Source: a virus (Duplodnaviria > Caudoviricetes). Taken from it: a stretch of 64,000 nucleotides of DNA. This document shows, one piece after another, positions 27,268 to 49,328 of the stretch. The DNA is taken from positions 6,372 through 70,371 of the IMG/VR virus record IMGVR_UViG_3300037453_000316; one strand, 5' to 3'. The notes beneath the pieces are model-generated. The model was given only the letters and a program-made list of their open reading frames with translations, did no database searches and had not been told where the DNA came from. Numbering within the stretch: the first letter of the stretch is position 1; every line of letters starts with the position of its first letter. The position numbers and the translations under genes were made by a program.

Positions 27268-28974
27268 TTAGTAGAGATTTACACCCTTACCACACATTAC
27301 TTCAAAAGCATAGTAGTAAAGTTGTGGGTGATGTCCTGCACGAACAATAGCATAACGTGACTTCAATGAAGTTACAGGAGCACCTTCCATACCTTCTGCC
27401 GGATAAGAGAGCTTATCAGCCATCAAGTAAGGCATGAAAACGATACCTGGTTCATTGTCCTTACCCTTACGACCTACTACGATGTGACCATCTGTATAAG
27501 GCATATTCGGGTCAACATAGATGCTTACACCTGAAATTGCACCGATTGGGTAGAGAGAACCAGCGGTCTGGTTGATGGTGTTAGAAAGTGGATAAGCTGT
27601 GAAACCAGCACAATCCTGGATAGCGGCTGCGATACCTGCTGCACATACAGCGAAGGTACCAGCACCTCTACGACCTCTTTGAGCGATGAGTGTAGAAGCA
27701 GCGAGAATCTTCGAGTACAGTCTTCTCTGGATTGTACCGAGAGTTTCAGCACCACCTGCTACGAATACAGTTTCGTATCCTTCTGGCTTATCTTCATTCG
27801 GGTCAACGAAGAAGAATGTGTTAAGGTTGATACCTTCAAATGCAAGAGCTTCCTCGTGGTTCTTCCAACCAAGTTCGAAGATATTGTTCAACAACTCACG
27901 GTTGATGTGCTGTGTCAACTCGTTTACGAGTTCTGCTTCAACCTGTGCGAGAGCGTCAATACCGTAAGCCTTGAGGTCCTGAATCTGTTCACGAGTGATA
28001 GCACCCTTAACCTGAATGGTCTTGGCTTCTACCTTCTCGGTGAATACGTTCAATGACATCATATTACTTGGTGTTGATTCACCAGTTGCTCTGTCATAAG
28101 ACTGTGCTGACATAGGTTTGCCGTTCTTGAATCCAGCACCTGTGAAACCAGGGATGAAATCTTCGAGAGCCTTTACAGTGTCGATGTCGATAACATAGTA
28201 CTTTTCAGCAATCATTTTAGCATCGTCACCCATAAGAGTTTCTGCGAGAGTTATTGATGCACCTTCACCACCGTTCCACTTCTTTTCGTGCAATATCGTC
28301 TTTTCTTTTACTTGGAAGATAGGACGACCATCGATACGACCGAGAGCAACGAAAGTGAGTTCGTAATCACCAACTGTTATTGGAGCCATACCAGGTTGGA
28401 AAGTAGCTTGAAGGTCTTTAAAACTTGCGGCGTGATTTACAGCGTCATAGTCTGAATCAGAATCACTACCATCTGCTGTTGCAAGTGTCAACTTAACCAT
28501 AAGAGGAGCAGTTGTTGATTCATTACCTTCTGGCCATTTACCTTCAAAACGTGGGTTGATGTTAGTCTTACCACCTTCATAAACATAGTCCATATACTGA
28601 AGGATTCCGAGAGGACCTTGCATTGGAACTACTGGAACCAAGTCCAAAGCGATAGTCTGTGCAGCTACCTGTACAGCGAGAGGGAGAAGTGAGAATGGAT
28701 TATCACCACTACCACGTTGTCCGTCGTAACCGTTGTTAGGGTTAGCACCTGGGAAGAACATATCACCCATACCACCAACATTCATTCCTGGGTTAAGGTG
28801 AGCATATCCCATTACTGACTCATTAAGTTGTTTCTTTTCGTACATATCGTGATAAGCACAATATTTACTCATCCAAGTCAACTTGCTTCTATCAGTAATG
28901 CCAGTTGACTCGGTAATAAAACCTGACCAAGCCTTCATTGTTTCGGCTTCGTTCAAAATAACATTTTGTAACAT
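27268..28974 (-). CDS. gp23: Major capsid protein
   Basis: LVPVVPMQGPLG, EKVEAKTIQVK..TREQIQDLKA, ELTQHINRE, YMADK..LKSRYAI; two late promoters upstream. Confidence 0.95.
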   Translation of the reverse strand: MLQNVILNEAETMKAWSGFITESTGITDRSKLTWMSKYCAYHDMYEKKQLNESVMGYAHLNPGMNVGGMGDMFFPGANPNNGYDGQRGSGDNPFSLLPLAVQVAAQTIALDLVPVVPMQGPLGILQYMDYVYEGGKTNINPRFEGKWPEGNESTTAPLMVKLTLATADGSDSDSDYDAVNHAASFKDLQATFQPGMAPITVGDYELTFVALGRIDGRPIFQVKEKTILHEKKWNGGEGASITLAETLMGDDAKMIAEKYYVIDIDTVKALEDFIPGFTGAGFKNGKPMSAQSYDRATGESTPSNMMSLNVFTEKVEAKTIQVKGAITREQIQDLKAYGIDALAQVEAELVNELTQHINRELLNNIFELGWKNHEEALAFEGINLNTFFFVDPNEDKPEGYETVFVAGGAETLGTIQRRLYSKILAASTLIAQRGRRGAGTFAVCAAGIAAAIQDCAGFTAYPLSNTINQTAGSLYPIGAISGVSIYVDPNMPYTDGHIVVGRKGKDNEPGIVFMPYLMADKLSYPAEGMEGAPVTSLKSRYAIVRAGHHPQLYYYAFEVMCGKGVNLY

Positions 28975-29867: not shown

Positions 29868-31934
29868 TTAGTTCTTTCTCATACGGTATTTAATCTGTTC
29901 TGACATTGCAACGAGTCTGTCCGACATACCTTCGTTAACCTTGCCATCACTCTTGTTTGCGGTAACTGCTTCATTTATCTTCTTCATCGGAACTTGTTTC
30001 TCCCTCATATCACGAGTGTTCCAGAAATAAGCTGCCGTTTCGGCGTTATTTATAATGAACATCTTTGATTCTGAAAGGATTTCCTGCTTTCTTTCATCTG
30101 AAAGGTTAGCCCATTTTTCTTTGAGTCTTGCCGGTATGAAGTTTACAAGTTTGAACTCGTTTGAATTTTGAAGAGCCCTTCTCGATTCTTCAATCTGTTC
30201 AGCTTCCTTCTGCTTCAATTCAGCATACTGTGTCTTTACGGTTGAAATGAGATTTCCAAGTTTTTCAGTAAGTTCGGTCTGGTATTTCTTAGCGTCAAAT
30301 TGAGATTTCTTAACAGCGGTTTCTCTCTTATTTACCGTATTAACTTTATTAAATGAATTGTTGCTTTCGTTTATCTTTTCAGCACCTTCCATATTGTTGA
30401 TACTTTCAACTATATAGTTGTTGTGTGAAACGATGTTGTTCATACCTTCAGAAATATAGTTGCTGTATGACTTCAACTGTTCAAATTTCTCATTCAATGA
30501 ATTTGTTTCATCAATCATCTTGTTGCAGTTCTCTGCGATGTAGTCTTGATGTTCAATTGCCTGGTTCAATTTTTCAACGAGATAATTCGAATGTGCTATA
30601 TTCTTGTTCTGCTCTTCTGCAAGCATATTCGAGTAGTCTATCGACTTGTCGAGCATTTCAGAGATGTAGTTCTGATAACCGATTGTGTCATTCAAGTTTT
30701 CAACTATGTAGTCTTGATGTTCAATCATCTTGTTGCAGTTCTCAACTATATAGTCTTGATGGTTAATCATCTTGTTGCAGTTCTCTGCGATGTAGTCCTG
30801 ATGTTCAATCATCTTGTTGCAGTTCTCTGCAATGTAGTCCTGGTGAGAAATTGCATTGTCGAGTTGTTCTGCAAGATAAACAGTGTATTTTTTAAGGTTG
30901 TTGTATCTTTCTTCAACCTCGCCCATCTTTGCATCAACACTATTTGCCACCAAGTTTGAAATAAGTTTGTTATCTGTCTTTCCATCCTCGAAGGCTTCAG
31001 TTGGTTTCAAACCTTCCTTTTCCTTCTTGAATGAATCCAATTCCGTCTTATAATTGGTGATAGCGGATTGCAAATCGGCTATAATTTCCGAAAGATTTTC
31101 TGTATATCTCTGGAAATCTTCAAAAGAAATGTAATTTGCATTATCCATATTATTTGTATTGTTTGTATCGTCTATTGTACCGTTAGAAGCCCTGTTGTTT
31201 GTGTTCTTGTACTGCTGGGTTGCTCCAAACCTATCAGTCTTGTATCCTTCTGAACCCGGTTCAGGAAGAAGTTCAGTATTTGTCTCATAGATTTCAAAGT
31301 TATCCGAACTTGAAATGAGTTTCATACCTTCGTTGACTTTGTTGTAACTTTCATTCAATTCACTGAGGGCTTTTCTTGAAGTTTCTGAAATCAATGATGA
31401 ACCATATCCTTCGTTTACTCTTGATAGAACAGCGTTGGCGAAACCTGGGTCAGCAACCAAATCGTATGTGAAGAGTTGTTGAAGTCTTACTCGTCCTGTT
31501 GATTCGTCAACGGTTCCAGCGGCTCTTGAACTGATATGTAAAGGAATACCGTCCTTTACAAGCGCTTGTGCCTCCTTACCCTTCGTAGTATTCAGAAGAC
31601 GAATCTTTCCAACGATGGCGTTTTTTTGCGGGTCGTATTCAAGACTCTCTATCACATGTGAAGCGTTTGTCAATGAAATCTCATATCCGTGAGGATGGTC
31701 CAGTTCACCGAGAAGGGCGTGATTCTTTATCGTTTCCTTCAATGCTTCTATATGTGGAAGAAAGTCTGCACTTTCATAAATTCTACCATTACGGTTTTTC
31801 TGGTTGAAAGTTGTAAAAATACCGGTAAGAACTATTGAATTTTCGGGTGTTCCGAGATTGTTGACAACAGTCTCGTTGGTATATTTTATATCGGAACCCG
31901 AGCGTTCTACCACTAATACTCTTTTGTCCTTCAT
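29868..31934 (-). CDS. gp21: Prohead protease fused to scaffold/core protein
   Basis: KNRNGRIY, ALLGELDHP, ISSRAAG, YDLVADPG, then a long coiled coil with many [LIV]NE sites. Confidence 0.9.
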   Translation of the reverse strand: MKDKRVLVVERSGSDIKYTNETVVNNLGTPENSIVLTGIFTTFNQKNRNGRIYESADFLPHIEALKETIKNHALLGELDHPHGYEISLTNASHVIESLEYDPQKNAIVGKIRLLNTTKGKEAQALVKDGIPLHISSRAAGTVDESTGRVRLQQLFTYDLVADPGFANAVLSRVNEGYGSSLISETSRKALSELNESYNKVNEGMKLISSSDNFEIYETNTELLPEPGSEGYKTDRFGATQQYKNTNNRASNGTIDDTNNTNNMDNANYISFEDFQRYTENLSEIIADLQSAITNYKTELDSFKKEKEGLKPTEAFEDGKTDNKLISNLVANSVDAKMGEVEERYNNLKKYTVYLAEQLDNAISHQDYIAENCNKMIEHQDYIAENCNKMINHQDYIVENCNKMIEHQDYIVENLNDTIGYQNYISEMLDKSIDYSNMLAEEQNKNIAHSNYLVEKLNQAIEHQDYIAENCNKMIDETNSLNEKFEQLKSYSNYISEGMNNIVSHNNYIVESINNMEGAEKINESNNSFNKVNTVNKRETAVKKSQFDAKKYQTELTEKLGNLISTVKTQYAELKQKEAEQIEESRRALQNSNEFKLVNFIPARLKEKWANLSDERKQEILSESKMFIINNAETAAYFWNTRDMREKQVPMKKINEAVTANKSDGKVNEGMSDRLVAMSEQIKYRMRKN
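30511..30846 (-). repeat. 42-nt (14-aa HQDYIAENCNKMIE) repeat in the scaffold
   Basis: Near-identical copies at 30511, 30721, 30763 and 30805, all in 42-nt register. Confidence 0.85.
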
Positions 31935-31988: not shown

Positions 31989-33695
31989 TTATAGACCTCC
32001 GAAACCTCCGCCGCCTTCATCTTCGTCTTCGTCTTCTTTCTTTTTCTTCTTTTTTGATGGCTTGAAGTTTTCCTTTGGTTCACCTTCTATTATCTTTGCG
32101 ATATCCTCTTCCTTATATCCTTCTTCACGAAGTTCCTTCTCCTCCTTGAACCTCTTGTTTTCCTTGAGTTCCTCATCGGTAAGTCCGAACCATTTACGAA
32201 CCGCCCACTCGAAATCGAAGTAAGGTATCTGGTTACCTTCCTTGTCGGTTTCCACCATAGAACTCATAAGAGAACTTATGAAGTCAGACTGTTTCTGCAA
32301 GAACTCCATCTCCTTGTTCTTTTCAAACAATGAATCCGAATACCAATCCAGACCCATATTTACACGGAAATTTATATCCGTAGTAATTTCCGGATGTTTC
32401 AGACACATCTGAATATATAACGGCTTTATAAGGATTTCGGAGAAAATTGCACGAAGTCTCTTTACGAACTTCGAGAACCTTATCTCTTCACGGTTTATAC
32501 CTTCGGCGGAAAGTGTGAATGTTCCCTCACCCTGTTCTTTTTCGAAACGGGTGAAAGGTATCTTTGACGCCTGTCTTAACTTGTCACGGAAATACCTCAA
32601 AGTTTCGGTATCCGATATTTCAGGACCGTCACCTCCGATATTCTGTATCTGCGGGGTCTCACCACCTTCGGATGCCATAAAGATGTCCTTGTAGAACTGC
32701 AACATAGGACGACCGTTGGTTCTTATCTCACCGGAATCCCAGTCGAAGTCCACAAGTTCTTTGTAGTTCGACATCGCCTGTGCAAGTGTCTGACGACCTC
32801 TCGGTGACTGTACCGAACCGACCGGTATTATATATTGTGTCTTGTAGCTTGCGTTTGTAACCGCCCATATTATACGGGTGGCCTCCATAGTCCTCAATAT
32901 GTTGAATGAACGGATAAGTCTTTCCACATAGGATATTCTTGAAACGGCATCCGCCTTTGCATAGGCGAGGTATATAATCTGTGAGTCGTAAAGTATTCTG
33001 TCCTGTGTAACCGTTCCGTTTGGAGAGAACTGCTGGTTGACGAACCATATCTTTTCATTGGTGTTCGGGTCTATGCCCGGTGTGAGCATTGCTGGGTCAA
33101 GTTCAACGAAACCTATGATTTCGGTCTGTTCTTTGTTGTAAACTATTTCAAATGCAAGGAAACCGTCTATCAACCATTTACGGAAATAATCTGTGGCTTG
33201 AACAGTATCATAGAATCCGAAATAGTTATAGAGCTTATTATACTCTTCGTTCATTTCGTCGATTATACTCTGTTCAACCTTGTAGTTTAGTTTTGAAGAT
33301 GCAAATTTGTTCGCCCCGTCAAAGCATACACACTCCTCACATATTATATCAAGTATCTCCTCGATTTCATCCTGTAGTGCATATCGTCTCAACTGCTCCT
33401 TTTTCTTGGCGTAGTTTTCTTCCGATAGGTTGAAATACCCCTTTGATAACGAAGGGTCGGTCGATGACATTCTTGCAAACAATACTTGAACCGCTTCATC
33501 GTTTAACGAACCTACTTGTGAAGAAGTGGGGTTCGATGTCATAACTTGCCTTTGCAAATCCAAATCCTGAGAACGGACATTCTTTATAATGTCATCCTTA
33601 TAGTTCATACCGAAAGATGAGAGTTTCCTCAACATCCTTCTTACCGGATTCGGATTTATGGTATTGTTTCTATTATTTCCAGTAAAACCTGACAT
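31989..33695 (-). CDS. gp20: Portal protein
   Basis: RRYALQDEIEEILDII, WLIDG, SYVERL, IIWAV, REEIRFSKFVKRLR. Confidence 0.92.
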   Translation of the reverse strand: MSGFTGNNRNNTINPNPVRRMLRKLSSFGMNYKDDIIKNVRSQDLDLQRQVMTSNPTSSQVGSLNDEAVQVLFARMSSTDPSLSKGYFNLSEENYAKKKEQLRRYALQDEIEEILDIICEECVCFDGANKFASSKLNYKVEQSIIDEMNEEYNKLYNYFGFYDTVQATDYFRKWLIDGFLAFEIVYNKEQTEIIGFVELDPAMLTPGIDPNTNEKIWFVNQQFSPNGTVTQDRILYDSQIIYLAYAKADAVSRISYVERLIRSFNILRTMEATRIIWAVTNASYKTQYIIPVGSVQSPRGRQTLAQAMSNYKELVDFDWDSGEIRTNGRPMLQFYKDIFMASEGGETPQIQNIGGDGPEISDTETLRYFRDKLRQASKIPFTRFEKEQGEGTFTLSAEGINREEIRFSKFVKRLRAIFSEILIKPLYIQMCLKHPEITTDINFRVNMGLDWYSDSLFEKNKEMEFLQKQSDFISSLMSSMVETDKEGNQIPYFDFEWAVRKWFGLTDEELKENKRFKEEKELREEGYKEEDIAKIIEGEPKENFKPSKKKKKKEDEDEDEGGGGFGGL

Positions 33696-40260: not shown

Positions 40261-41601
40261 TTAAGATAAATGGTCTTTTGAATTTATAACTTCACTCTTT
40301 TCAATAAGTTTCATTTTTTTGTAGATAGCGTCTATCCTGAATTTAGTATCCCTTCCTTCACCGTCACGTATCTTGAGTATTTTCAGATAGTAATACGGTA
40401 TGAACTCACCATCATCGTTCTGTTCACCCATCCTCATCGTATCGGTCTGTATGATACCGAAACAAGTATCGACGGTGTGAAGCAGACCCATAGATTCAGC
40501 GACATCCTCCATATTGATGTCGGATTTGTCGAGAGCCGAACGTCCACACTGTGTCGCTGTTATCACGGCAAGGTTGTATTTGACCGCTATGCCTCTGAGG
40601 TCTTCCGCTATCTGTTTTATTTTCAGATAAGTACTTTCACTGTTGGGAAGACGGTAGTTGCACATAATGTTTATATAGTCGATTATGATAACATCTATCT
40701 TGAACTTACATGCCTCTTCCACCTCCTTTATGTACTTTTCAACATCAAGCACCGTTCCCTGTCCGGTCGGAAATTCTTTCACAAAAAGTTTTCCAAGAGG
40801 CATCATCGACATTGTGGTGAGGCCGTTAAGTCTCTTTCTGACCTTGCTCGGGTCGGTAACCATATTGTCATACTCGTCCAGAGTGATGTCAAACAAGTTG
40901 GCTCCTATTCTTCTGTTCACTTTCGCCGGTGACATTTCACAGGTAATGTACACCACATTCCTTCCCTTGCGTACAAATTCGGCGGCATCGTTACAGAGAT
41001 ATACGGACTTACCGACATTTGTTGCACCGATATAGCAGGTAAGTGTTTTTAAATCAAGACCGCCATTTGAAATCTTGTTGAAATGTTCCCAAGTGTAAGG
41101 CATCTTGTATTCTTCCGAACTTTTATGTGAATTGACATCGAAGAAATCACTTCCCAAATCATTGTCAAAGGAAATCAATGAAGTACTTGAAACCATCTCG
41201 GTCGCCCTATGGACCACATCCACAACATTATCCAGAGATATTTCGGAAGTCTTGATGTACGAAACAGCCTTGACTATGTTGACATTCAGTGCTCTCCATT
41301 GTATCCATCCTTCGGTTGTATTTTTCAACCACTCCACATCCAACGAATTTATCTCCACATCATATATTGAACGGATTATATCGGCGGACGGGGCGTTCTC
41401 ATCCCCCTTCAACAAGGAAATCATCTGTTCACAAGAAGGCGATTCCTTGTATTCCTTGAAGAAAATCTTGGCGGTTAAAGCAACCGACTGAAGGTCTTCG
41501 TTTGTAAAAAAATCCTTACCGATTTGTAGAAGATAGTTTGGATGTTTGAGCATATACGCAAAGATGATTTTCTCTTGTTGTATGCTTGTCTTTAATCCCA
41601 T
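40261..41601 (-). CDS. gp41: Replicative DnaB-like helicase
   Basis: GATNVGKS, ITCEM, IIIDYI, TATQ, AESMGL. Confidence 0.9.
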   Translation of the reverse strand: MGLKTSIQQEKIIFAYMLKHPNYLLQIGKDFFTNEDLQSVALTAKIFFKEYKESPSCEQMISLLKGDENAPSADIIRSIYDVEINSLDVEWLKNTTEGWIQWRALNVNIVKAVSYIKTSEISLDNVVDVVHRATEMVSSTSLISFDNDLGSDFFDVNSHKSSEEYKMPYTWEHFNKISNGGLDLKTLTCYIGATNVGKSVYLCNDAAEFVRKGRNVVYITCEMSPAKVNRRIGANLFDITLDEYDNMVTDPSKVRKRLNGLTTMSMMPLGKLFVKEFPTGQGTVLDVEKYIKEVEEACKFKIDVIIIDYINIMCNYRLPNSESTYLKIKQIAEDLRGIAVKYNLAVITATQCGRSALDKSDINMEDVAESMGLLHTVDTCFGIIQTDTMRMGEQNDDGEFIPYYYLKILKIRDGEGRDTKFRIDAIYKKMKLIEKSEVINSKDHLS

Positions 41602-41932: not shown

Positions 41933-43153
41933 TTATTCCTCGATGAGCTGGGTTTTGATTTGCTCTTCAACATCATTCTCCGTTTCATCTTCCTCGAACA
42001 AGTCGTCAACCCTCACTCCTTCTGCATACTTGAACTCCTTTTTTATATACTCGTCGAGTCTTTCGAGTCTTTCCTTGGTGAACGTCTTTGATGTGAAGAG
42101 TTCCTTCGGAGTAATCGTCTCACCATTATCAAGACAGAAGTTTCTCGAAGTCTCACTCGGTACGAAATACACAACTTCACCATCTTTCTTCTCCACCCTT
42201 ACATATTCTTCATTCGGTGACTTGGTGTATTCCTTTTCCGTTATGAACTTTCCTTTCTGGATACCACAACGCTCAAACGAAATATACTCTTCCAGTCCGA
42301 CATATGGGTTCATACCGTTTACATAACTTATATAGAACTTGACTTTCACCGGTTTGCAGAAACGGTTCTTGTCGGGTTCGGCCGTAACGATGATACCAGT
42401 CTGTAGATTATCCGAACCCTCTTTCAATTTCGCCTTTGAAAGATTAAGGATGATACTTGCACCGTATACGAGACCCTTTCCACCAGATTGAACCCTTTGT
42501 GCAAACAAGTCCGTAGTCATATAGATGTGGTTCGAGAAAGCGAAAGTAGCACCTATCACACCCATCTTATGTGCAATAATCCTGAAAATGGCACGAATCT
42601 GTTTTGCCCTTGTCATATCCGCCTTGTCGGAAGCTGTCTTTGCATCGTCTATTTCTTTCTGTGTCGCCAAGTTACCGACAGAATCGAGAACGAAAAATAC
42701 ACTCGGAATCTGGTTTCCAGCTTCTTTCTGTTCAATAAGAATATCAAGAGTCTGTGTAATTGAAGTCTTGAAATCCTGTACCGTACCGACCGGTTCATAA
42801 CGGAATTTCTCCGGGTCTACACCGAACTGCACAAGCTGTGAGCGTTCAATGGCGTTTTCACTGTCATACCATATAACGAAATGTCCTTTCTTCTGTGCCT
42901 CACGAGCCATATTCATAAGAAGATATGTCTTGCCTGTACCGCTTTCCCCCGAAAGACAGAGGATTCTGTTATTAGGAGCTCCTCCGAAAACACTTCCCGT
43001 CAAGCATGCATTACAAATGTAATTACCGGTAGAAATATAATCTGTAATTTCCGATACTCCGGCACCGTCCGACATCAAACCACCCCATTTGGAATTTTTT
43101 GACATTTCCTTGTTCAAATCATTAAAACTAAATACTCCACTCTGCTTAGCCAT
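41933..43153 (-). CDS. uvsX: RecA-like recombinase
   Basis: ISTGNY, GESGTGKT, YDSE, LDSVGNL, SGGKG. Confidence 0.92.
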   Translation of the reverse strand: MAKQSGVFSFNDLNKEMSKNSKWGGLMSDGAGVSEITDYISTGNYICNACLTGSVFGGAPNNRILCLSGESGTGKTYLLMNMAREAQKKGHFVIWYDSENAIERSQLVQFGVDPEKFRYEPVGTVQDFKTSITQTLDILIEQKEAGNQIPSVFFVLDSVGNLATQKEIDDAKTASDKADMTRAKQIRAIFRIIAHKMGVIGATFAFSNHIYMTTDLFAQRVQSGGKGLVYGASIILNLSKAKLKEGSDNLQTGIIVTAEPDKNRFCKPVKVKFYISYVNGMNPYVGLEEYISFERCGIQKGKFITEKEYTKSPNEEYVRVEKKDGEVVYFVPSETSRNFCLDNGETITPKELFTSKTFTKERLERLDEYIKKEFKYAEGVRVDDLFEEDETENDVEEQIKTQLIEE

Positions 43154-43221
43154 ATACTAAAAATTATTTTATTATACTCTAAATATAACAAAATTCATAA
43201 ATAAAAAAAAGACATTTTTAT

Positions 43222-44694
43222 ATGAGGAACATACTCAATATAGACCAGTTTCTTCTGCTTGAATCGAAGGAGGATAAGACGAGGAGGATGCTAAAGTCAA
43301 GGGGATACGAAAACACTACGGAAATAATAAACGCTGTAAAACACGATTTCTCCGAACTGGAACATTCCGATAGACCGGCCTATAAGTTCCTTTATGCTAT
43401 ATGCCGTATGTATGTCGATGGTGAATTTCGTGACGCCAATGATATATCCACTATGAATTCTATGTTGAAGACCATATCGGTTGAACCTCACTTGTCTGAG
43501 TACGACCATAACCTCAACGGATTAAGTAAAGATGAGATTATCAGAAGATTCACTCCCATACAACAGAAGGAGAATGAGGATGAGATAAACTTCGTTAAAA
43601 GGATGAAGTTCGAGGGGGGTAGCGACTACGAGATAGTAAAGATAGACTCATACAGTCAAGCTGCTAAATATAAAAGGTTTGCTCCTTGGTGTGTTGCCGA
43701 TGAGCAAAGACATTTCGATTCATACTCCTGTGATGGAATAAACCAGTTTTATTTCTGTCTGAAAAGGGGGTTTGAAAGTGTTAAAAGGAATGATACTAAC
43801 GCACCCCTCAACGAGTATGGTCTCTCTATGATTTCAGTCTGTGTCGACTATAATGGAATGCCCCTTTTTGTAACCACTAGATACAACCACGATTTCGACG
43901 GAGAAAACAACGAAGAGTTGTGTAAACCTAGACAAGTCAGCGAAGTGATAAATATGAACTTCTTTGAAGTCTTTAAACCTTCACCGTTGGGTTTGAGATT
44001 GAACAAATATGAAATTAATTCAAAACTTGAAAAAGGCATCGATATCAATTCATTGTTTGACAAAACCTATAAAATAACAGATGGTTTTTATGCAGTCAGT
44101 GTCAAGAAAAAACAATCTCTCGTTTATAAGAACAAACTGATTACAGATTGGTTTGACAAAAATTTATTAGATGTCAAAAAAATAAAACTCATAGGTGAAA
44201 AAGACAACAAACCAATCATTGAATATGACGATGACATATATTTAACAGACAAAAACTTAAGAACAATACCGATTTATTTCAGTGTTGTAAAAGGTAATTT
44301 TGGATGTTCAGTCAATCAACTCGAATCGCTGGAAGGTTGTCCGGAAGAGGTCGGTGGTACTTTTGATTGCAGTGACAATAACTTAAAGTCATTAAAAGGA
44401 GCCCCGAGAAAAGTCGGTGGTAGTTTTATTTGCAATACGAATGACTATCTTACATTACTGGAAGGTTGTCCGGAAGAGGTCGGCAAAAATTTTGACTGTA
44501 GTGGTAATTCATTGGAGTCATTAAAAGGAGCCCCGAGAAAAGTCGGTGGTTATTTTGATTGTTCAATGAACCAACTTAAATCACTGGAAGGTTGTCCGGA
44601 AGAGGTCGGCGGTGATTTTAATTGTAGTTATAACAATTTGACATCACTTGAAGGTGCTCCGAGAGTGGGTGGTAGAATTATAAATAACATATAA
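43222..44694 (+). CDS. Putative internal head protein with C-terminal LRR-like (SLEGCP) repeats
   Basis: MRNILNIDQFLLLES; about 6 repeats of L.SL.G.P..VGG.F.CS.N; late promoter at 43196. Confidence 0.75.
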   Translation: MRNILNIDQFLLLESKEDKTRRMLKSRGYENTTEIINAVKHDFSELEHSDRPAYKFLYAICRMYVDGEFRDANDISTMNSMLKTISVEPHLSEYDHNLNGLSKDEIIRRFTPIQQKENEDEINFVKRMKFEGGSDYEIVKIDSYSQAAKYKRFAPWCVADEQRHFDSYSCDGINQFYFCLKRGFESVKRNDTNAPLNEYGLSMISVCVDYNGMPLFVTTRYNHDFDGENNEELCKPRQVSEVINMNFFEVFKPSPLGLRLNKYEINSKLEKGIDINSLFDKTYKITDGFYAVSVKKKQSLVYKNKLITDWFDKNLLDVKKIKLIGEKDNKPIIEYDDDIYLTDKNLRTIPIYFSVVKGNFGCSVNQLESLEGCPEEVGGTFDCSDNNLKSLKGAPRKVGGSFICNTNDYLTLLEGCPEEVGKNFDCSGNSLESLKGAPRKVGGYFDCSMNQLKSLEGCPEEVGGDFNCSYNNLTSLEGAPRVGGRIINNI

Positions 44695-44733: not shown

Positions 44734-45042
44734 ATGATTAATAAAGATATAAACGAATGTGACGGAGTGTCCGGTGGTGCAACACCAATGAATGTAGGTG
44801 GAATGGGTGACATAATGTTACCGGGTTCCGGTTCACCGGGTTCCGGTGATATTCCATTACCTGGTCCGACGGGAGGAGTTTATCTGCAAGTACAACCCTT
44901 CGACCAGTTCATCAAGAAATCAAAATGGAAGAAAAGGAAGAAAAGATTCAAGGGAAAAACCACACCAAACTCTGACATATATTCCTATGTGGATGATTTC
45001 AAGACTTATGCAAAAAGAACAGAAAAAAATCTAAATGCTTGA
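44734..45042 (+). CDS. Small protein containing a copy of the major-capsid N-terminal motif
   Basis: INE then PMNVGGMGDIMLPG..GSGDIP, versus MCP LNE then PGMNVGGMGDMFFPG..GSGDNP; basic KKSKWKKRKKR patch. Confidence 0.7.
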   Translation: MINKDINECDGVSGGATPMNVGGMGDIMLPGSGSPGSGDIPLPGPTGGVYLQVQPFDQFIKKSKWKKRKKRFKGKTTPNSDIYSYVDDFKTYAKRTEKNLNA

Positions 45043-46337
45043 TTATGGGAGTATTACTTAATTTGACACAAGAGTATTTCGGAAAGAAAACTAGAACGGA
45101 AGATATGGTTATACATATGGATGGTGTTGAAACGATAGAACACGAATTCATAGACAAATGCGGTAAAAAACAGTATGCTTCATATATCATTAAAGACGGC
45201 GGTTCATATATACTGCCATCCGAACCATTAAGGGAACTGGTAAAAATTATAATCAAAAGAGACGGAAATAAATGCGACTTGAATATCATTGATGTTTCCA
45301 ATGTGGTATGTATGAAAAGTTTGTTTGAAGACTCCGATTTCGATGGAGATATATCGGAGTGGGATGTGAGAAATGTGGAAAATATGGAGGCGATGTTCAA
45401 AAAATCCCATTTCAACGGAGACATTTCAAAATGGGAAACCGTCAAACTGCAAAACATTTGTGAAATATTCTGTGAATCTTCTTTCACGGGTGACATAAGC
45501 GGATGGGATGTATCAAAAGTAACCGTTATGAGTGGCGCTTTTCAAAAATGTCCCTTCGACGGTGATATTTCAAAATGGAAGACTGGTAGTGTAAGATTTA
45601 CATCCTATATGTTTGAGGAATCTTCTTTCACAGGTGACATAAGTGAATGGGATGTAAGCAATGTGGAAAGAATGTCGGGGATGTTCAAAAAATCTCCTTT
45701 CAACGGTGATATTTCAAGATGGAAAGTCGGAAAAGTGGAAACTATGTCGAATATGTTTGAGGAATCTTCTTTCACAGGTGACATAAGCGAATGGGATGTA
45801 AGCAACGTAAACGATATGTCGGATATGTTTAGAGAGTCTTCTTTTAACGGAGACATTTCAAAATGGAAAGTCGGAAAAGTCAAGAGCATGGCCAATATGT
45901 TTCGGAAATCCCATTTCACGGGTGACATAAGCGACTGGAATGTAAGCAGTGTGGAGAAAATGTTATTTATGTTTTCTGATTCTCCTTTCAACGGTGATAT
46001 TTCAAGATGGAATGTCGAAAATGTGAAAGATATGGCATTTATGTTCGCAAATTCCGACTTCAAGGGAGATATAAGTCAATGGAAGACATATAGCCTGACT
46101 GATGCGGGTGGTATGTTTGACGGTTCTTCATTTAATGGAGATATAAGTGGCTGGTATGTAAAGAAACTAAAAAACGTGAAAGTTATGTTCCTTTTTGACA
46201 AAGAGTTTGACCAAGACCTTTCCGGATGGGAGTTTGAAAATCTAGAAGAACTTGAAATTGACGATTTAGTATTTTCCGGTACACCGCTTGAAAAAAATCC
46301 ACCACAATGGTATTTGAAAAGAAAGGCAATCTCATAA
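45039..46337 (+). CDS. BspA/DUF285-type repeat protein
   Basis: About 14 copies of a 22-aa unit F.GDIS.W.V..V..M..MF..S. Confidence 0.85.
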   Translation: MIMGVLLNLTQEYFGKKTRTEDMVIHMDGVETIEHEFIDKCGKKQYASYIIKDGGSYILPSEPLRELVKIIIKRDGNKCDLNIIDVSNVVCMKSLFEDSDFDGDISEWDVRNVENMEAMFKKSHFNGDISKWETVKLQNICEIFCESSFTGDISGWDVSKVTVMSGAFQKCPFDGDISKWKTGSVRFTSYMFEESSFTGDISEWDVSNVERMSGMFKKSPFNGDISRWKVGKVETMSNMFEESSFTGDISEWDVSNVNDMSDMFRESSFNGDISKWKVGKVKSMANMFRKSHFTGDISDWNVSSVEKMLFMFSDSPFNGDISRWNVENVKDMAFMFANSDFKGDISQWKTYSLTDAGGMFDGSSFNGDISGWYVKKLKNVKVMFLFDKEFDQDLSGWEFENLEELEIDDLVFSGTPLEKNPPQWYLKRKAIS

Positions 46338-46364: not shown

Positions 46365-48143
46365 ATGAACTATTACAATAAAGGATATATGCCATTGAAC
46401 GAAAGCAAGAAGGCTGTTGATATACAAGTGGTTTTTCTTAGTTCGAGGGCAGAAAAGACAACAAAGAGTTCAAACTCTATGTTTTTCTTCGAGGATGCCG
46501 CAAAGAAAGCGGGTCTCAAAATGGTGACGATAGACCCGAGTTCATCCTCAATAAGAAAGAACAGTGAAGATTCGTACAGCGTCATCGAAGAAAACGGTGG
46601 AAGTAAGAAGACATATGTCTTGAAACCATCGAACACGATAGTTGTTCCGAGAAGAACGGTTTTAAAAAACAGCGAATCGAAAGAGTTTATGCAGGACTTA
46701 CAAACTTACGGGTTCTTCTGTCTGAATACATTGGATTCAATTGAAACCTGTGAGGACAAATTCTTGACATACAAGAAACTCAAAAATTCGGGAGTTCCAA
46801 CTCCAAAGACTACCGTTATAACATCGTCTTCAATGAACAAACTTGAAGACAAGGTTCAGACCATCGGAGGCAAATTCCCGATAGTATGTAAGATACTGAA
46901 CGGAACACAAGGTGTCGGTGTGTTTATCATCGACTCTATGATGAGTCTCCGTTCAACACTTCAGACCATGTTCAAGATTTCACCGAAATCTGATATCATC
47001 CTTCAGGAGAAGATTGACTCCGACTATGATTTGAGAATACACGTTATGTACAATGGTTTTGAAAGAATGACTTCCGGTCTTGACGGTTTCGAAATAATCG
47101 GATGTATGAAGAGAAACCAGCTCGCCGGCGATTTCAGAAGCAACTATTCTCTCGGTTCAACTGCCGAAAAGGGAACATTGACACCGGAACAGGAGAAAAT
47201 CGCAAAGATGGCCGCAAAGGCTACGGGTTGTCGTTGGTGTGGTGTAGACTTGATTGTATCAGGAACAACAAAGCAGCCTTATGTAATAGAGGTTAACTCA
47301 TCACCAGGCACAAAAGGTATCACTACCGCCGCCGGTGATGATGTCGTAGGAACTCTGTTCAATATGTTCAAGGACTTCAAGTACACGAAATATGAATCCG
47401 AACAGATTGGAAGTTACGAAACAATCACCATAAAGGATATAACGAAGGAAAATCCTAACCTCGATGTTGCAATAAGATTTGATTCCGACAAGATGTTTAC
47501 AGAACTCGAATGTTCATCGGTAAATGCAAAGGATGAAGATGTTTCATTTGTATTCAACGGAGTAACATATAACAGAGAACTTGTGGGTTTGAAGAAAAAC
47601 GAACCTATGGTCGAGTTGAACCTCAAATTCAACGGAACAATATACAAGAACGAACTTGTGATATTGAAACAGATAAACGACAATATCAACAAGAACCATA
47701 TGGTCGGAGGTTCAAAGCTCATCAACCGTATAGCCAACAACGCCGTCATCATAGACCAGCCGTTCTATCTGACCGACAACACAACGGGTTTTGATGTTCC
47801 GAAGAAACCGATAGACGAATCGCTTCTTTTCGAAAGCAAACTGGATATGGCGTTTAAGGTGAGCAAGAACGAAGTGAATCTTATGAACCTCAAAACTATA
47901 TTAAACACATTCGTAAGCGGTACGAGAAACGAATATGTGAAGGGAAAGTTCGGAATAGACGCAACGGATTCAAACAACTGGGAAATCAAGTATAACAACC
48001 AGCCTTTCCTTGAGTGTAAAAACACAGACATCAAGTTTATGCACAATTCGTTCCCATATGAAATCGCTTGCAAAATCGCCGGTGTAATAGAATCCATACT
48101 TCCTACGGAAGTCGATATGTCGGTATATCCGGAAAACGAATAA
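46365..48143 (+). CDS. rimK: RimK-family ATP-grasp ligase fused to a degenerate retropepsin-like domain
   Basis: CEDKFLT, FPIVCKILNGTQGVGV, LQEKID, DFRSNYSLG, GVDLI..EVNSSPG; C-terminal domain aligns with the N-terminal half of 48384..49328. Confidence 0.88.
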   Translation: MNYYNKGYMPLNESKKAVDIQVVFLSSRAEKTTKSSNSMFFFEDAAKKAGLKMVTIDPSSSSIRKNSEDSYSVIEENGGSKKTYVLKPSNTIVVPRRTVLKNSESKEFMQDLQTYGFFCLNTLDSIETCEDKFLTYKKLKNSGVPTPKTTVITSSSMNKLEDKVQTIGGKFPIVCKILNGTQGVGVFIIDSMMSLRSTLQTMFKISPKSDIILQEKIDSDYDLRIHVMYNGFERMTSGLDGFEIIGCMKRNQLAGDFRSNYSLGSTAEKGTLTPEQEKIAKMAAKATGCRWCGVDLIVSGTTKQPYVIEVNSSPGTKGITTAAGDDVVGTLFNMFKDFKYTKYESEQIGSYETITIKDITKENPNLDVAIRFDSDKMFTELECSSVNAKDEDVSFVFNGVTYNRELVGLKKNEPMVELNLKFNGTIYKNELVILKQINDNINKNHMVGGSKLINRIANNAVIIDQPFYLTDNTTGFDVPKKPIDESLLFESKLDMAFKVSKNEVNLMNLKTILNTFVSGTRNEYVKGKFGIDATDSNNWEIKYNNQPFLECKNTDIKFMHNSFPYEIACKIAGVIESILPTEVDMSVYPENE

Positions 48144-48216: not shown

Positions 48217-48387
48217 ATGGGATGTAACTGTAATAAAAACGATTCAATTCCTCTTTCTGTAAAAAAGGAAAAGAGGAGAGGCCTTAAAGAGAAGATAAAT
48301 GAAATAAAGAAACTCTGGAAGGAAAGTAAAACTGTTGAAACATCGGGAAGCGTCACTGTAAACAAAGATGAACTTGGATTCAAATGA
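48217..48387 (+). CDS. Small basic late protein (MGCNC...)
   Basis: In-frame ATG at 48217 just after the late promoter 48204-48211; INE site. Confidence 0.6.
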   Translation: MGCNCNKNDSIPLSVKKEKRRGLKEKINEIKKLWKESKTVETSGSVTVNKDELGFK

Positions 48388-49328
48388 AGAGAATAAAGAC
48401 ATATGAGGAATTTATAAACGACAATCTAACAGAATCATCAAAGAGGAACGGTAAGGAAGTTATTGGTTTCAAGGAAGTGGTGGAAATTGTCGGTATCGGA
48501 AATATGAAGGCGAAATTCGACACCGGTAATACGGCCTATTCGGCAATCATAGTACAGGATTATTATGAAAAGGACGGCAAGGTGAAGTTTGAAATCAACA
48601 AAAAGGAATACGAATATCCCGTTGAAAAGCATGTCAGAATATGGCATCACGGAAAATCTACGGAGAGACCCGTGATAAAGGTTGATTTGATTTTCAACGG
48701 AACGACATACAAGGATGAACTTGTTGACTTGAAAATTTCGGATTTGACCGGAACGAAAAATTACAGAAGCAGAATGCTCATTTGCAAGAAGTTTATGGAA
48801 AAGGCCAATGTTCTCATTGACCCGAGCAAGGACTTCAAGCTCACCGATAAGAAAGATATTGACAAACCGAAAAAGAAAAAGAAGAAAATAAACGAAGGTC
48901 TTGAGGAAAACCCCGTATCTATGACCACAAAAGGTACGAGTGACGCCATAGACATAGATTTCAAGATTGGAAGCGATATAATCGGAGGAGCGATTATAAC
49001 ATTCCAGTATATTGACGGTATTATAGATGAATATTTGGAATCCGTAGATGATTTCGATGAAAGCGTTTTCAGAAAATTCGATAGTAACCAGAAACTATAC
49101 AACCTTGAAGACTTCTGGATAAACAAGGATTTCAGGGGAAAAGGTTATTCAAAACTCTGTCTTGAAAGAATGATGGAGAAATACGGAGACAAACAAATGG
49201 TACTCCGTGCCTTTCCGGATGGAGGGGTAGATGAAGACACCCTTGTAAGAATATATAGTAGACACGGTTTTGTTGTGTTGCAACCCACAATGAACGATGG
49301 AACAATAATGGGAAAATTTATAAAATAA
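48384..49328 (+). CDS. RimB-like retropepsin protease fused to a GNAT acetyltransferase; capsid-targeting-like N-terminus
   Basis: MKRIKTYEEFIND..LTES; KAKFDTGN..SAI; linker KKINEG; GNAT motif A FRGKGYS and YSRHGF. Confidence 0.8.
   Translation: MKRIKTYEEFINDNLTESSKRNGKEVIGFKEVVEIVGIGNMKAKFDTGNTAYSAIIVQDYYEKDGKVKFEINKKEYEYPVEKHVRIWHHGKSTERPVIKVDLIFNGTTYKDELVDLKISDLTGTKNYRSRMLICKKFMEKANVLIDPSKDFKLTDKKDIDKPKKKKKKINEGLEENPVSMTTKGTSDAIDIDFKIGSDIIGGAIITFQYIDGIIDEYLESVDDFDESVFRKFDSNQKLYNLEDFWINKDFRGKGYSKLCLERMMEKYGDKQMVLRAFPDGGVDEDTLVRIYSRHGFVVLQPTMNDGTIMGKFIK

Follow-up and report, generated by a model that had tools for sequence, protein, structure and literature searches.

A small basic protein of a huge phage that copies the post-cleavage arm of its major capsid protein, a probable head-assembly or cargo-anchoring peptide

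The window, by which we mean the whole stretch of 64,000 nucleotides analysed here, belongs to a viral record of 70 kb and comes from a huge phage whose head genes are of the T4 type. It contains a small open reading frame (ORF) with an ATG start, coding for a protein of 102 residues, in which the segment that the major capsid protein (MCP) of the same phage is predicted to keep at its N-terminus after maturation cleavage is found a second time. The small protein is probably an unrecognised head-assembly or cargo-anchoring peptide. A second protein with the phage's own version of the MCP arm is present beside the MCP in seven deeply diverged lineages, and full-text literature searches turned up no description of an MCP-arm copy.

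The capsid arm and its copy

The nearest named relatives of the window MCP are those of the uncultured huge phage LR756500.1 (45% identity), of the Prevotella Lak megaphages (about 34%) and of Tenacibaculum, Chryseobacterium and Flavobacterium jumbo phages, and public metagenomes hold more than 2100 MCP clusters of the window's clade. In G001, a relative of 363 kb rated 96% complete, a single full MCP gene is seen. The tripeptide L50-N51-E52 of the window MCP (Table 1) would be the site of its maturation cut, in parallel to the cleavage of T4 gp23 at E65, and N51, E52 and the following S53 are invariant in 45 MCPs; the serine protease/scaffold protein encoded nearby is the presumed processing enzyme. 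Variation of the arm among related MCPs is found in the four residues after GMG. In a profile alignment with the solved gp23*, residue 106 of the window MCP is matched to residue 40 of the mature chain of T4, taken here to be gp23 residue 105, and by position MCP residues 53-95 lie within the segment that matches T4 gp23* 66-105 (N-fist and arm). In T4 these residues are disordered inside the unexpanded head and lie on the outer surface after expansion, when the arm makes intra- and inter-capsomer contacts (PMC9546572).

To judge from its sequence, the small ORF is a real gene under selection. Its family comprises 10 protein clusters of 54-98% identity with many invariant columns, among them E8, C9, the VGGMG core, GS.DIP, PTG.VY.Q and PFD.F.K, besides the Lys patch and the C-terminal Y.YVDDF..Y. 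The protein has a calculated pI of 9.5, and an AlphaFold2 monomer model predicts disorder except for a helix at residues 84-100 (mean pLDDT 55.7), as would be expected of a carrier of motifs. It thus appears to be a disordered, basic and motif-built protein, made up of a protease site, the MCP-arm copy, a targeting-like motif, a poly-Lys patch and a short helix. Searches of Pfam and PHROGs (PHROG E up to 1) and a profile search of the PDB gave no match to the small protein, and neither did a tblastn search of 50,697 phage records with it and with the polyprotein P0018, so that this collection contains no isolate of the clade; in the ESM Atlas only unnamed viral clusters were matched. Its identity as a lipoprotein was rejected, the Cys being preceded by neither a signal peptide nor a lipobox.

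The likeness between the two proteins spans residues 19-42 of the small protein and 64-94 of the MCP, which are identical at 16 of 31 positions with one 7-residue gap (BLASTP E 7e-6), and a family-versus-family comparison by hhalign yields a probability of 95.6% (E 1.2e-8, 30 columns). These values bear out the earlier note, which had proposed that the small protein copies the post-cleavage arm of the MCP from a gene about 16 kb away (15.8 kb as measured). Both proteins carry the exact 8-mer MNVGGMGD, followed by PG and then by GSGD.P, and in both the shared stretch begins 10-11 residues past an aliphatic-N-E tripeptide (residues I6-N7-E8 of the small protein and L50-N51-E52 of the MCP). Of the 24 bases that code for the 8-mer, 21 are shared, and the differences are confined to third-codon positions, which indicates that the likeness is maintained at the protein level. 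A six-frame scan of G001 found no carrier of the motif other than the MCP and the small protein. Chance or low complexity was rejected as an explanation in view of the E-values, of the motif being unique to these two proteins in a genome of 363 kb, and of the co-variation described below. In the long form P0012, compared with the MCP N-terminus by BLAST, the likeness does not reach into the propeptide.

Within the close clade, the residues after GMG match those of the MCP, D-type copies occurring with D-type MCPs and AAYF copies with AAYF MCPs. Four variants of the family (P0053, P0057, P0061 and P0068) retain the linker of the MCP in full (NPNNGYDG, then a single residue and RGSGD), and in this linker stretch P0061 and the MCP share about 75% DNA identity with many silent differences. 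Two further sequences depart from the pattern: the MCP cluster P0089 (on a 2.3-kb contig) is without the first half of the arm, its cut site running straight into NGYDG, and the variant P0063 is without arm copy and linker. These could be natural deletions or assembly errors and, if real, would question a strict need for the arm stretch.

Table 1. Coordinates, in the window, of the small ORF, the head genes and the associated sequence elements
Feature	Position	Strand	Remarks
Small ORF	44734-45042	+	
N-terminal piece MINKDINE	44734-44757	+	Ends in I-N-E (I6-N7-E8), a prohead-protease-type site; putative cleavage
MCP-arm copy, residues 9-42	44758-44859	+	Cys, Gly-rich lead-in, NVGGMGD, PG, GSGD.P
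Internal motif PFDQFIKK	44896-44919	+	T4 capsid-targeting-like; P55, F56, D57, F59, K61 invariant
Lys/Arg-rich patch, residues 61-75	44914-44958	+	Poly-Lys patch in nearly all family members
C-terminal helix, residues 84-100	44983-45033	+	Y.YVDDF..Y; Y83, Y85, D88, F89, T91, Y92 nearly invariant
TATAAATA box	44679-44686	+	55 nt upstream of small ORF; putative promoter
CATAAATA box	43196-43203	+	Precedes upstream ORF at 43222, same direction as small ORF
CATAAATA, example sites	33731(-), 31970(-), 27186(-), 43196(+), 46333(+)		
Starts of leader-bearing genes	3632, 4483, 11340(-), 26369(-), 36700(-), 43222, 48384, 56260(-)		
UvsX-like gene	41933-43153		Adjoins small ORF
DnaB/gp41-like gene	40261-41601		Adjoins small ORF
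Major capsid protein, gp23 type, 568 aa	27268-28974	-	PF07068, E 5.7e-35; phrog_138; matches T4 gp23* chain 8gmo
MCP post-cleavage arm, residues 53-95 (original of the copy)	28690-28818	-	Conserved in 119/120 related MCPs
MCP L50-N51-E52, predicted maturation cleavage site	28819-28827	-	Fits L/I-x-E rule
Prohead serine protease (S77, gp21-like) with scaffold-like C-terminal part	29868-31934	-	PF03420, phrog_207
Portal protein, gp20-like	31989-33695	-	PF07230, E 1.9e-68

Beyond the arm copy, the earlier note had singled out the leader-like PFDQFIKK and the basic patch, and both proved to be conserved in the family; together with the protease-type site, the patch and the F..FI motif (targeting residues 4, 7 and 8) fit T4 biology. 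In PFDQFIKK, the residues found at positions 4 and 7 are aromatic and that at position 8 is Ile, with Lys and not Glu at position 10. In the T4 targeting sequence, a residue other than Glu at position 10 stops cutting and leaves targeting unaffected (PMC9026906). Since Lys replaces Glu at this position, PFDQFIKK is probably not cut, and a targeting role for a motif placed internally would be a guess.

Co-variation across lineages and T4 gene 61.1

The seven lineages in which a second protein carries the arm are the window clade, its sister clade (L042/L054), LR756500.1, LR756501.1, LR756502.1, PTm1 (ORF-299) and Lak-B5. A profile of the small-protein family retrieves, along with the MCP arms, the one copy in each of the distant genomes LR756500.1 (E 2.6e-8), LR756501.1 (E 4.1e-5) and PTm1 (E 9.7e-5), as well as that of LR756502.1 with an E-value of 0.054, a match that is weak by itself. 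The Lak-B5 copy (Prevotella phage Lak) was found using Lak's own arm (E 4e-4), and the Lak pair is biased by that search. When the seven copies and the seven MCP arms were aligned locally in all combinations, the own-genome pair topped every row and every column of the 7 x 7 matrix, with scores of 72-105 within genomes and 22-68 between them, and in a permutation test only the true pairing, one out of 5040, reached the observed sum. For five of the seven copies, the profile that retrieved them did not include their own MCP, so that the result is not circular in these cases. Copy and MCP also have lineage-specific residues and linker lengths in common, such as G.GDPVPAG in Lak and NVNG.G...PGDP in LR756500. 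Hence co-conservation with the MCP arm among homologues, the check put forward in the earlier note, is strongly upheld, the copy tracking the arm in all seven lineages, few as these are, across the T4 superfamily. A second arm copy was searched for and not found in PAU, MA9V-1 and pT24, which counts against a head peptide.

The protein might have nothing to do with heads and instead serve some replication or early-cluster function, its likeness to the arm being a by-product of occasional gene conversion between Gly-rich stretches, and its location is congruent with such a role: the small ORF adjoins UvsX-like and DnaB/gp41-like genes (Table 1), with no recognised primase neighbour, and in T4-like phages the corresponding gene lies in the replication cluster beside the primase gene, which itself counts against a head peptide. 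However, synonymous sites are not homogenised. Residues identical between copy and MCP use the same codon in 35-60% of cases (75% in Lak), and this low codon identity is better explained by protein-level selection than by recent gene conversion, which was rejected as unlikely. Moreover, the copy always begins at a protease-type site, often after a targeting-type leader, and the copy gene of PTm1 stands among head genes. A role apart from heads is thus very improbable. In PTm1 the gene coding for ORF-299 is placed between the portal and the protease/scaffold genes, where T4 has the core genes 67 and 68. ORF-299 itself (AP019524.1 216794-217627; L074) has an N-terminal domain of about 175 residues with a DGHH motif which, by eye, recalls ParB/sulfiredoxin-type domains and has no Pfam match at E up to 0.01.

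In the T4 genome, gene 61.1 is matched when gp23 residues 60-105 serve as the query (E 3e-5). Residues 2-38 of gp61.1 align with gp23 57-93 with a score of 82, compared with 25.8 +/- 4.9 (maximum 61) for 2000 shuffles, and the alignment extends across the cut site into gp23*, of which it covers the initial ~28 residues. This protein of 54 residues consists of a textbook capsid-targeting leader ending in I-K-E, the arm copy and a Lys/Glu tail, and its sole PDB match is gp23. Homologues of gene 61.1 were matched in 1432 of the 50,697 phage records. A few of them are auto-annotated as 'major capsid protein'; among KM236237.1, PQ657793.1, KF925357.1 and NC_048798.1 the homologue is labelled in some as 'major capsid protein' or 'major capsid domain-containing protein', and such labels are an annotation artefact of the arm copy. 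In T4, gene 61.1 has been recorded just as a conserved ORF of unassigned function adjoining the primase gene (PMC1524935). Inside the Straboviridae 108 of 120 permutations reach the observed sum, the gp23 arms being nearly identical and the co-variation test thus without power.

Like the window protein, gp61.1 (phrog_1823) has an aliphatic-x-E site, a copy of its own MCP's arm and then a Lys-rich tail, and the two genes may share a replication neighbourhood, that of T4 being the 41-61 block. Some relatives of gp61.1 are longer, with an added N-terminal domain (phrog_2086; Miller, CC2, QD01, KARL-1). On the other hand, gp61.1 has the N-terminal targeting sequence, whereas the window ORF is without it and has instead F..FI after the copy; the window family further adds the PTG.VY.Q linker and the C-terminal helix, and can end proteins of up to 1159 residues. 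Direct comparison of the window family with gp61.1/phrog_1823 by hhalign gives a probability of 0.7%, with no PHROG match at E up to 1. Direct homology is not seen, each copy following the MCP of its own phage. The small protein would be termed a T4 gp61.1-type protein by architecture, and perhaps by neighbourhood, not by sequence homology.

Fused forms, promoter-like boxes and gene neighbourhood

A profile search of 1.84 billion representative proteins with the window family returned 62 matches, most of which carry a unit of ~100 residues at the C-terminus of proteins of 130-1159 residues. The large proteins are composed of tandem units of roughly 100-200 residues, each opening with aliphatic-N-E-S and a conserved acidic lead-in, and one of them opens with a GNAT domain. 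In P0016, P0018, P0020, P0022, P0033 and P0039 the acidic motif of the repeats ends in RKEDD, and these proteins resemble a protease-cut polyprotein. A related lead-in, E-Y-F-G ... R.ED, opens the DUF285 gene of the window (45039-46337) and its L011 homologues. At 52 module boundaries, for which the search pattern used fixed P1 as E, P3 is I, L, V or M in 48 and T in 4, P2 is free, and E is followed immediately by Cys in 44, with one or two residues in between in the other 8. The cleavage consensus of T4 gp21 is L/I-x-E (PMC9026906), and the boundaries fit a cut-site pattern of the gp21 type. The region before the site is variable, ranging from 8 residues in the window through about 80 in L011 to more than 1000 in P0020, and in P0011, LR756501 and LR756502 a T4-targeting-like leader stands directly before it. 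The window ORF would then be the stand-alone, cargo-less form of the module. Upstream of it, a 490-residue repeat protein (43222-44694) lies in the same frame, separated by a single TAA and 13 sense codons, an arrangement that could be due to chance or read-through, or to a fused form having been split recently; in the close relative G001 several stops lie between the two.

The earlier note had placed the small ORF in a cargo operon. The sequence lends only partial backing to this putative operon, in the form of late-promoter-like boxes and T4-like leaders. The box upstream of the small ORF is TATAAATA, which we take to be the T4 late-promoter consensus. A related box, CATAAATA, precedes the portal, the protease and many other genes, those at 43222 and 46365 among them, at a distance of 26-36 nt, and in L011 it stands close upstream of the ATG of the module gene; we consider it a candidate late promoter related to TATAAATA of T4. 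It occurs at 22 sites in the window, compared with roughly 7 expected from base composition (our own estimate), and 15 of the 22, those of portal and protease included, lie 26-36 nt upstream of start codons. At least eight genes of the window have leaders that fit the T4 targeting rules (aromatics at positions 4 and 7, I/L, aliphatic-x-E), with KYEEFINE, NFDEFIIE and LFEQFILE as examples, which suggests a large set of head-packaged proteins in this phage.

Neighbouring genes raise the prospect that the small protein is a substrate or partner in peptide modification by a RimK-type ATP-grasp ligase and a RimB-like protease/GNAT. Across the close clade the RimK-type gene is 1-2 genes from the module gene, namely in the window, L003, L004, L011 and L040, and the linkage persists even in genomes that differ in gene order with respect to the RecA-type gene. 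In the window, L011 and L040 the RimK gene is followed by a RimB-like protease gene, and a GNAT domain is found in the window and L011; the loci concerned in the window are 46365-48143 and 48384-49328. The linked phages are, however, close kin, their paired MCPs being about 78-97% identical to that of the window, so that shared gene order says little. There is no ATP-grasp neighbour in PTm1, LR756500, LR756501, LR756502, the P0064 contig or T4, and the C-terminus of the small protein is not Glu-rich, nor are its last residues conserved. With the ligase linkage absent from the deep lineages, a role as RiPP or RimK substrate is scarcely credible and was rejected. A dUTPase is encoded just downstream of the arm-copy gene in two distant lineages, in L068 (the P0064 contig) and, with one intervening ORF, in LR756500.1 (L073), a linkage that is probably an old synteny of a replication/nucleotide block.

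Possible roles of the arm copy in the head

The internal proteins IPI, IPII and IPIII of T4 are small and basic, with leaders in which positions 4 and 7 are aromatic and position 8 is Ile; gp21 processes them at L/I-x-E, and they are packed with the DNA, a conserved tag being followed by hypervariable cargo (PMC9026906, PMC3012670). They are without an MCP-arm copy, and their tag is N-terminal and removed, whereas in the window family the conserved unit lies C-terminal to the cut and would be retained. The N-terminus of the window protein, MINKDINE, also lacks their ten-residue N-terminal targeting sequence with its aromatics at 4 and 7, which counts against a head peptide. The small core proteins gp67 and gp68 are likewise cut by gp21, and it is at their map position that PTm1 has its copy gene, but no similarity was found between them and the window protein. 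T4 gp67 resembles the gp23 propeptide, a weak match from a four-sequence search (35% identity over 48 residues, E 0.004), and offers a precedent for a core protein that imitates the MCP N-terminus; of the two, the acidic gp67 resembles what precedes the cut, whereas the basic window protein resembles what follows it.

The small protein might also be no head component at all. It would then be a soluble decoy or timer that competes for the protease or for MCP-MCP or MCP-scaffold contacts and thereby holds back premature assembly or cleavage or tunes head size. Both the cut site and its P' side are present in the copy, spaced as in the MCP, gp67 with its likeness to the gp23 propeptide is a parallel, and gp67 and gp68 are thought to be involved in head-size determination (PMC9026906). 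T4 61.1 is listed as early in one transcriptome table (PMC9697503 supplement), which agrees with a timer and counts against a head peptide, and no TATAAATA box lies within 90 nt upstream of it. In the window clade, by contrast, late-promoter-like boxes stand ahead of the gene, and a decoy would have no need of a poly-Lys patch that is conserved, of the C-terminal helix or of being attached to large cargo, which makes this explanation distinctly unlikely.

A different role within the head, in line with the earlier note, would be that of a permanent structural plug, the copy filling empty MCP-arm sites at the portal or the pentons after expansion while its basic tail tethers the DNA to the shell. 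Co-variation with the MCP arm is what would be expected of a peptide docking into the lattice, the T4 arm does make contacts within and between capsomers of the expanded head (PMC9546572), and the PTm1 copy gene adjoins the portal gene; since G001 shows a single full MCP gene, arms would be missing from the portal vertex alone. Nevertheless, the T4 segment moves to the outer surface (PMC9546572), whereas the Lys-rich tail points to the DNA-filled interior, and a unit attached to 300-1100 residues of cargo fits a loading tag better than a lattice part. Nor was any structure with extra density assigned to gp61.1 found, gp23 being its only match in the PDB. We regard the plug as unlikely, and it fits less well than a prohead peptide and cargo anchor, because the T4 arm ends outside the shell and the module would serve as a cargo tag.

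Cargo tags of comparable design exist in encapsulins, the loading peptides of which are short, Gly-rich, disordered and C-terminal on diverse cargo, and dock inside an HK97-fold shell. They are not copies of the shell protein's own arm, and no protease is involved, so that the comparison with the module is one of working principle only and not of homology. A terminal position on diverse cargo is also found in the module family, the form in the window being cargo-less. Another parallel is CpmB of the SaPIs, which shares the capsid-binding C-terminal motif of the scaffolding protein of the helper phage. Like the window protein, CpmB copies a short capsid-assembly motif of another head protein; it copies a scaffold, however, and belongs to a phage parasite, whereas here the phage copies its own MCP.

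Taken together, we give about even credence to the small protein being a prohead-targeted, protease-trimmed and basic head peptide as well as a cargo anchor, of which binding, cleavage and packaging are the steps that we infer. The protein would be synthesised late, and the arm copy, perhaps with the targeting-like motif, would bind the partner of the MCP N-terminal region, whether that is the scaffolding core or, where core and shell meet, an adjacent MCP subunit, and so enter the assembling prohead. As the T4 arm lies inside the unexpanded head and outside after expansion, a basic internal peptide is likelier to use its copy during prohead assembly. The gp21-like protease would then cut after E8, and a basic product of ~10 kDa would remain in the head with the DNA. 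In the sister lineages the C-terminal unit would act as a loading or anchoring tag on large repeat proteins, and in these fused forms a cut at its front edge would release the cargo. More tentatively, it is possible that gp23-type phages, from T4 to megaphages of 0.5-0.7 Mb, use a general loading or anchoring peptide derived from the MCP post-cleavage arm and co-evolving with its docking site in the prohead, which would let megaphages load long, protease-cut polyproteins of repeat cargo.

The findings extend the pattern of capsid-arm mimicry to megaphages and identify, in sister lineages, the ~100-residue unit as the C-terminal module of repeat proteins of up to 1159 residues. With regard to how internal proteins are selected for and retained in large phage heads, detailed knowledge is at hand just for the ten-residue targeting sequence of T4. 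If the proposed role is true, a second, MCP-derived targeting signal would exist beside this classical sequence, and it is open to direct test in T4, for which genetics, mass spectrometry and cryo-EM exist. Such a signal would be the phage equivalent of the peptides that load cargo into encapsulins, and would offer a new means of placing foreign proteins in capsids of the T4 type. It would also give a function to T4 ORF 61.1, which has been 'hypothetical' for decades, and would explain how megaphages may load polyprotein cargo.
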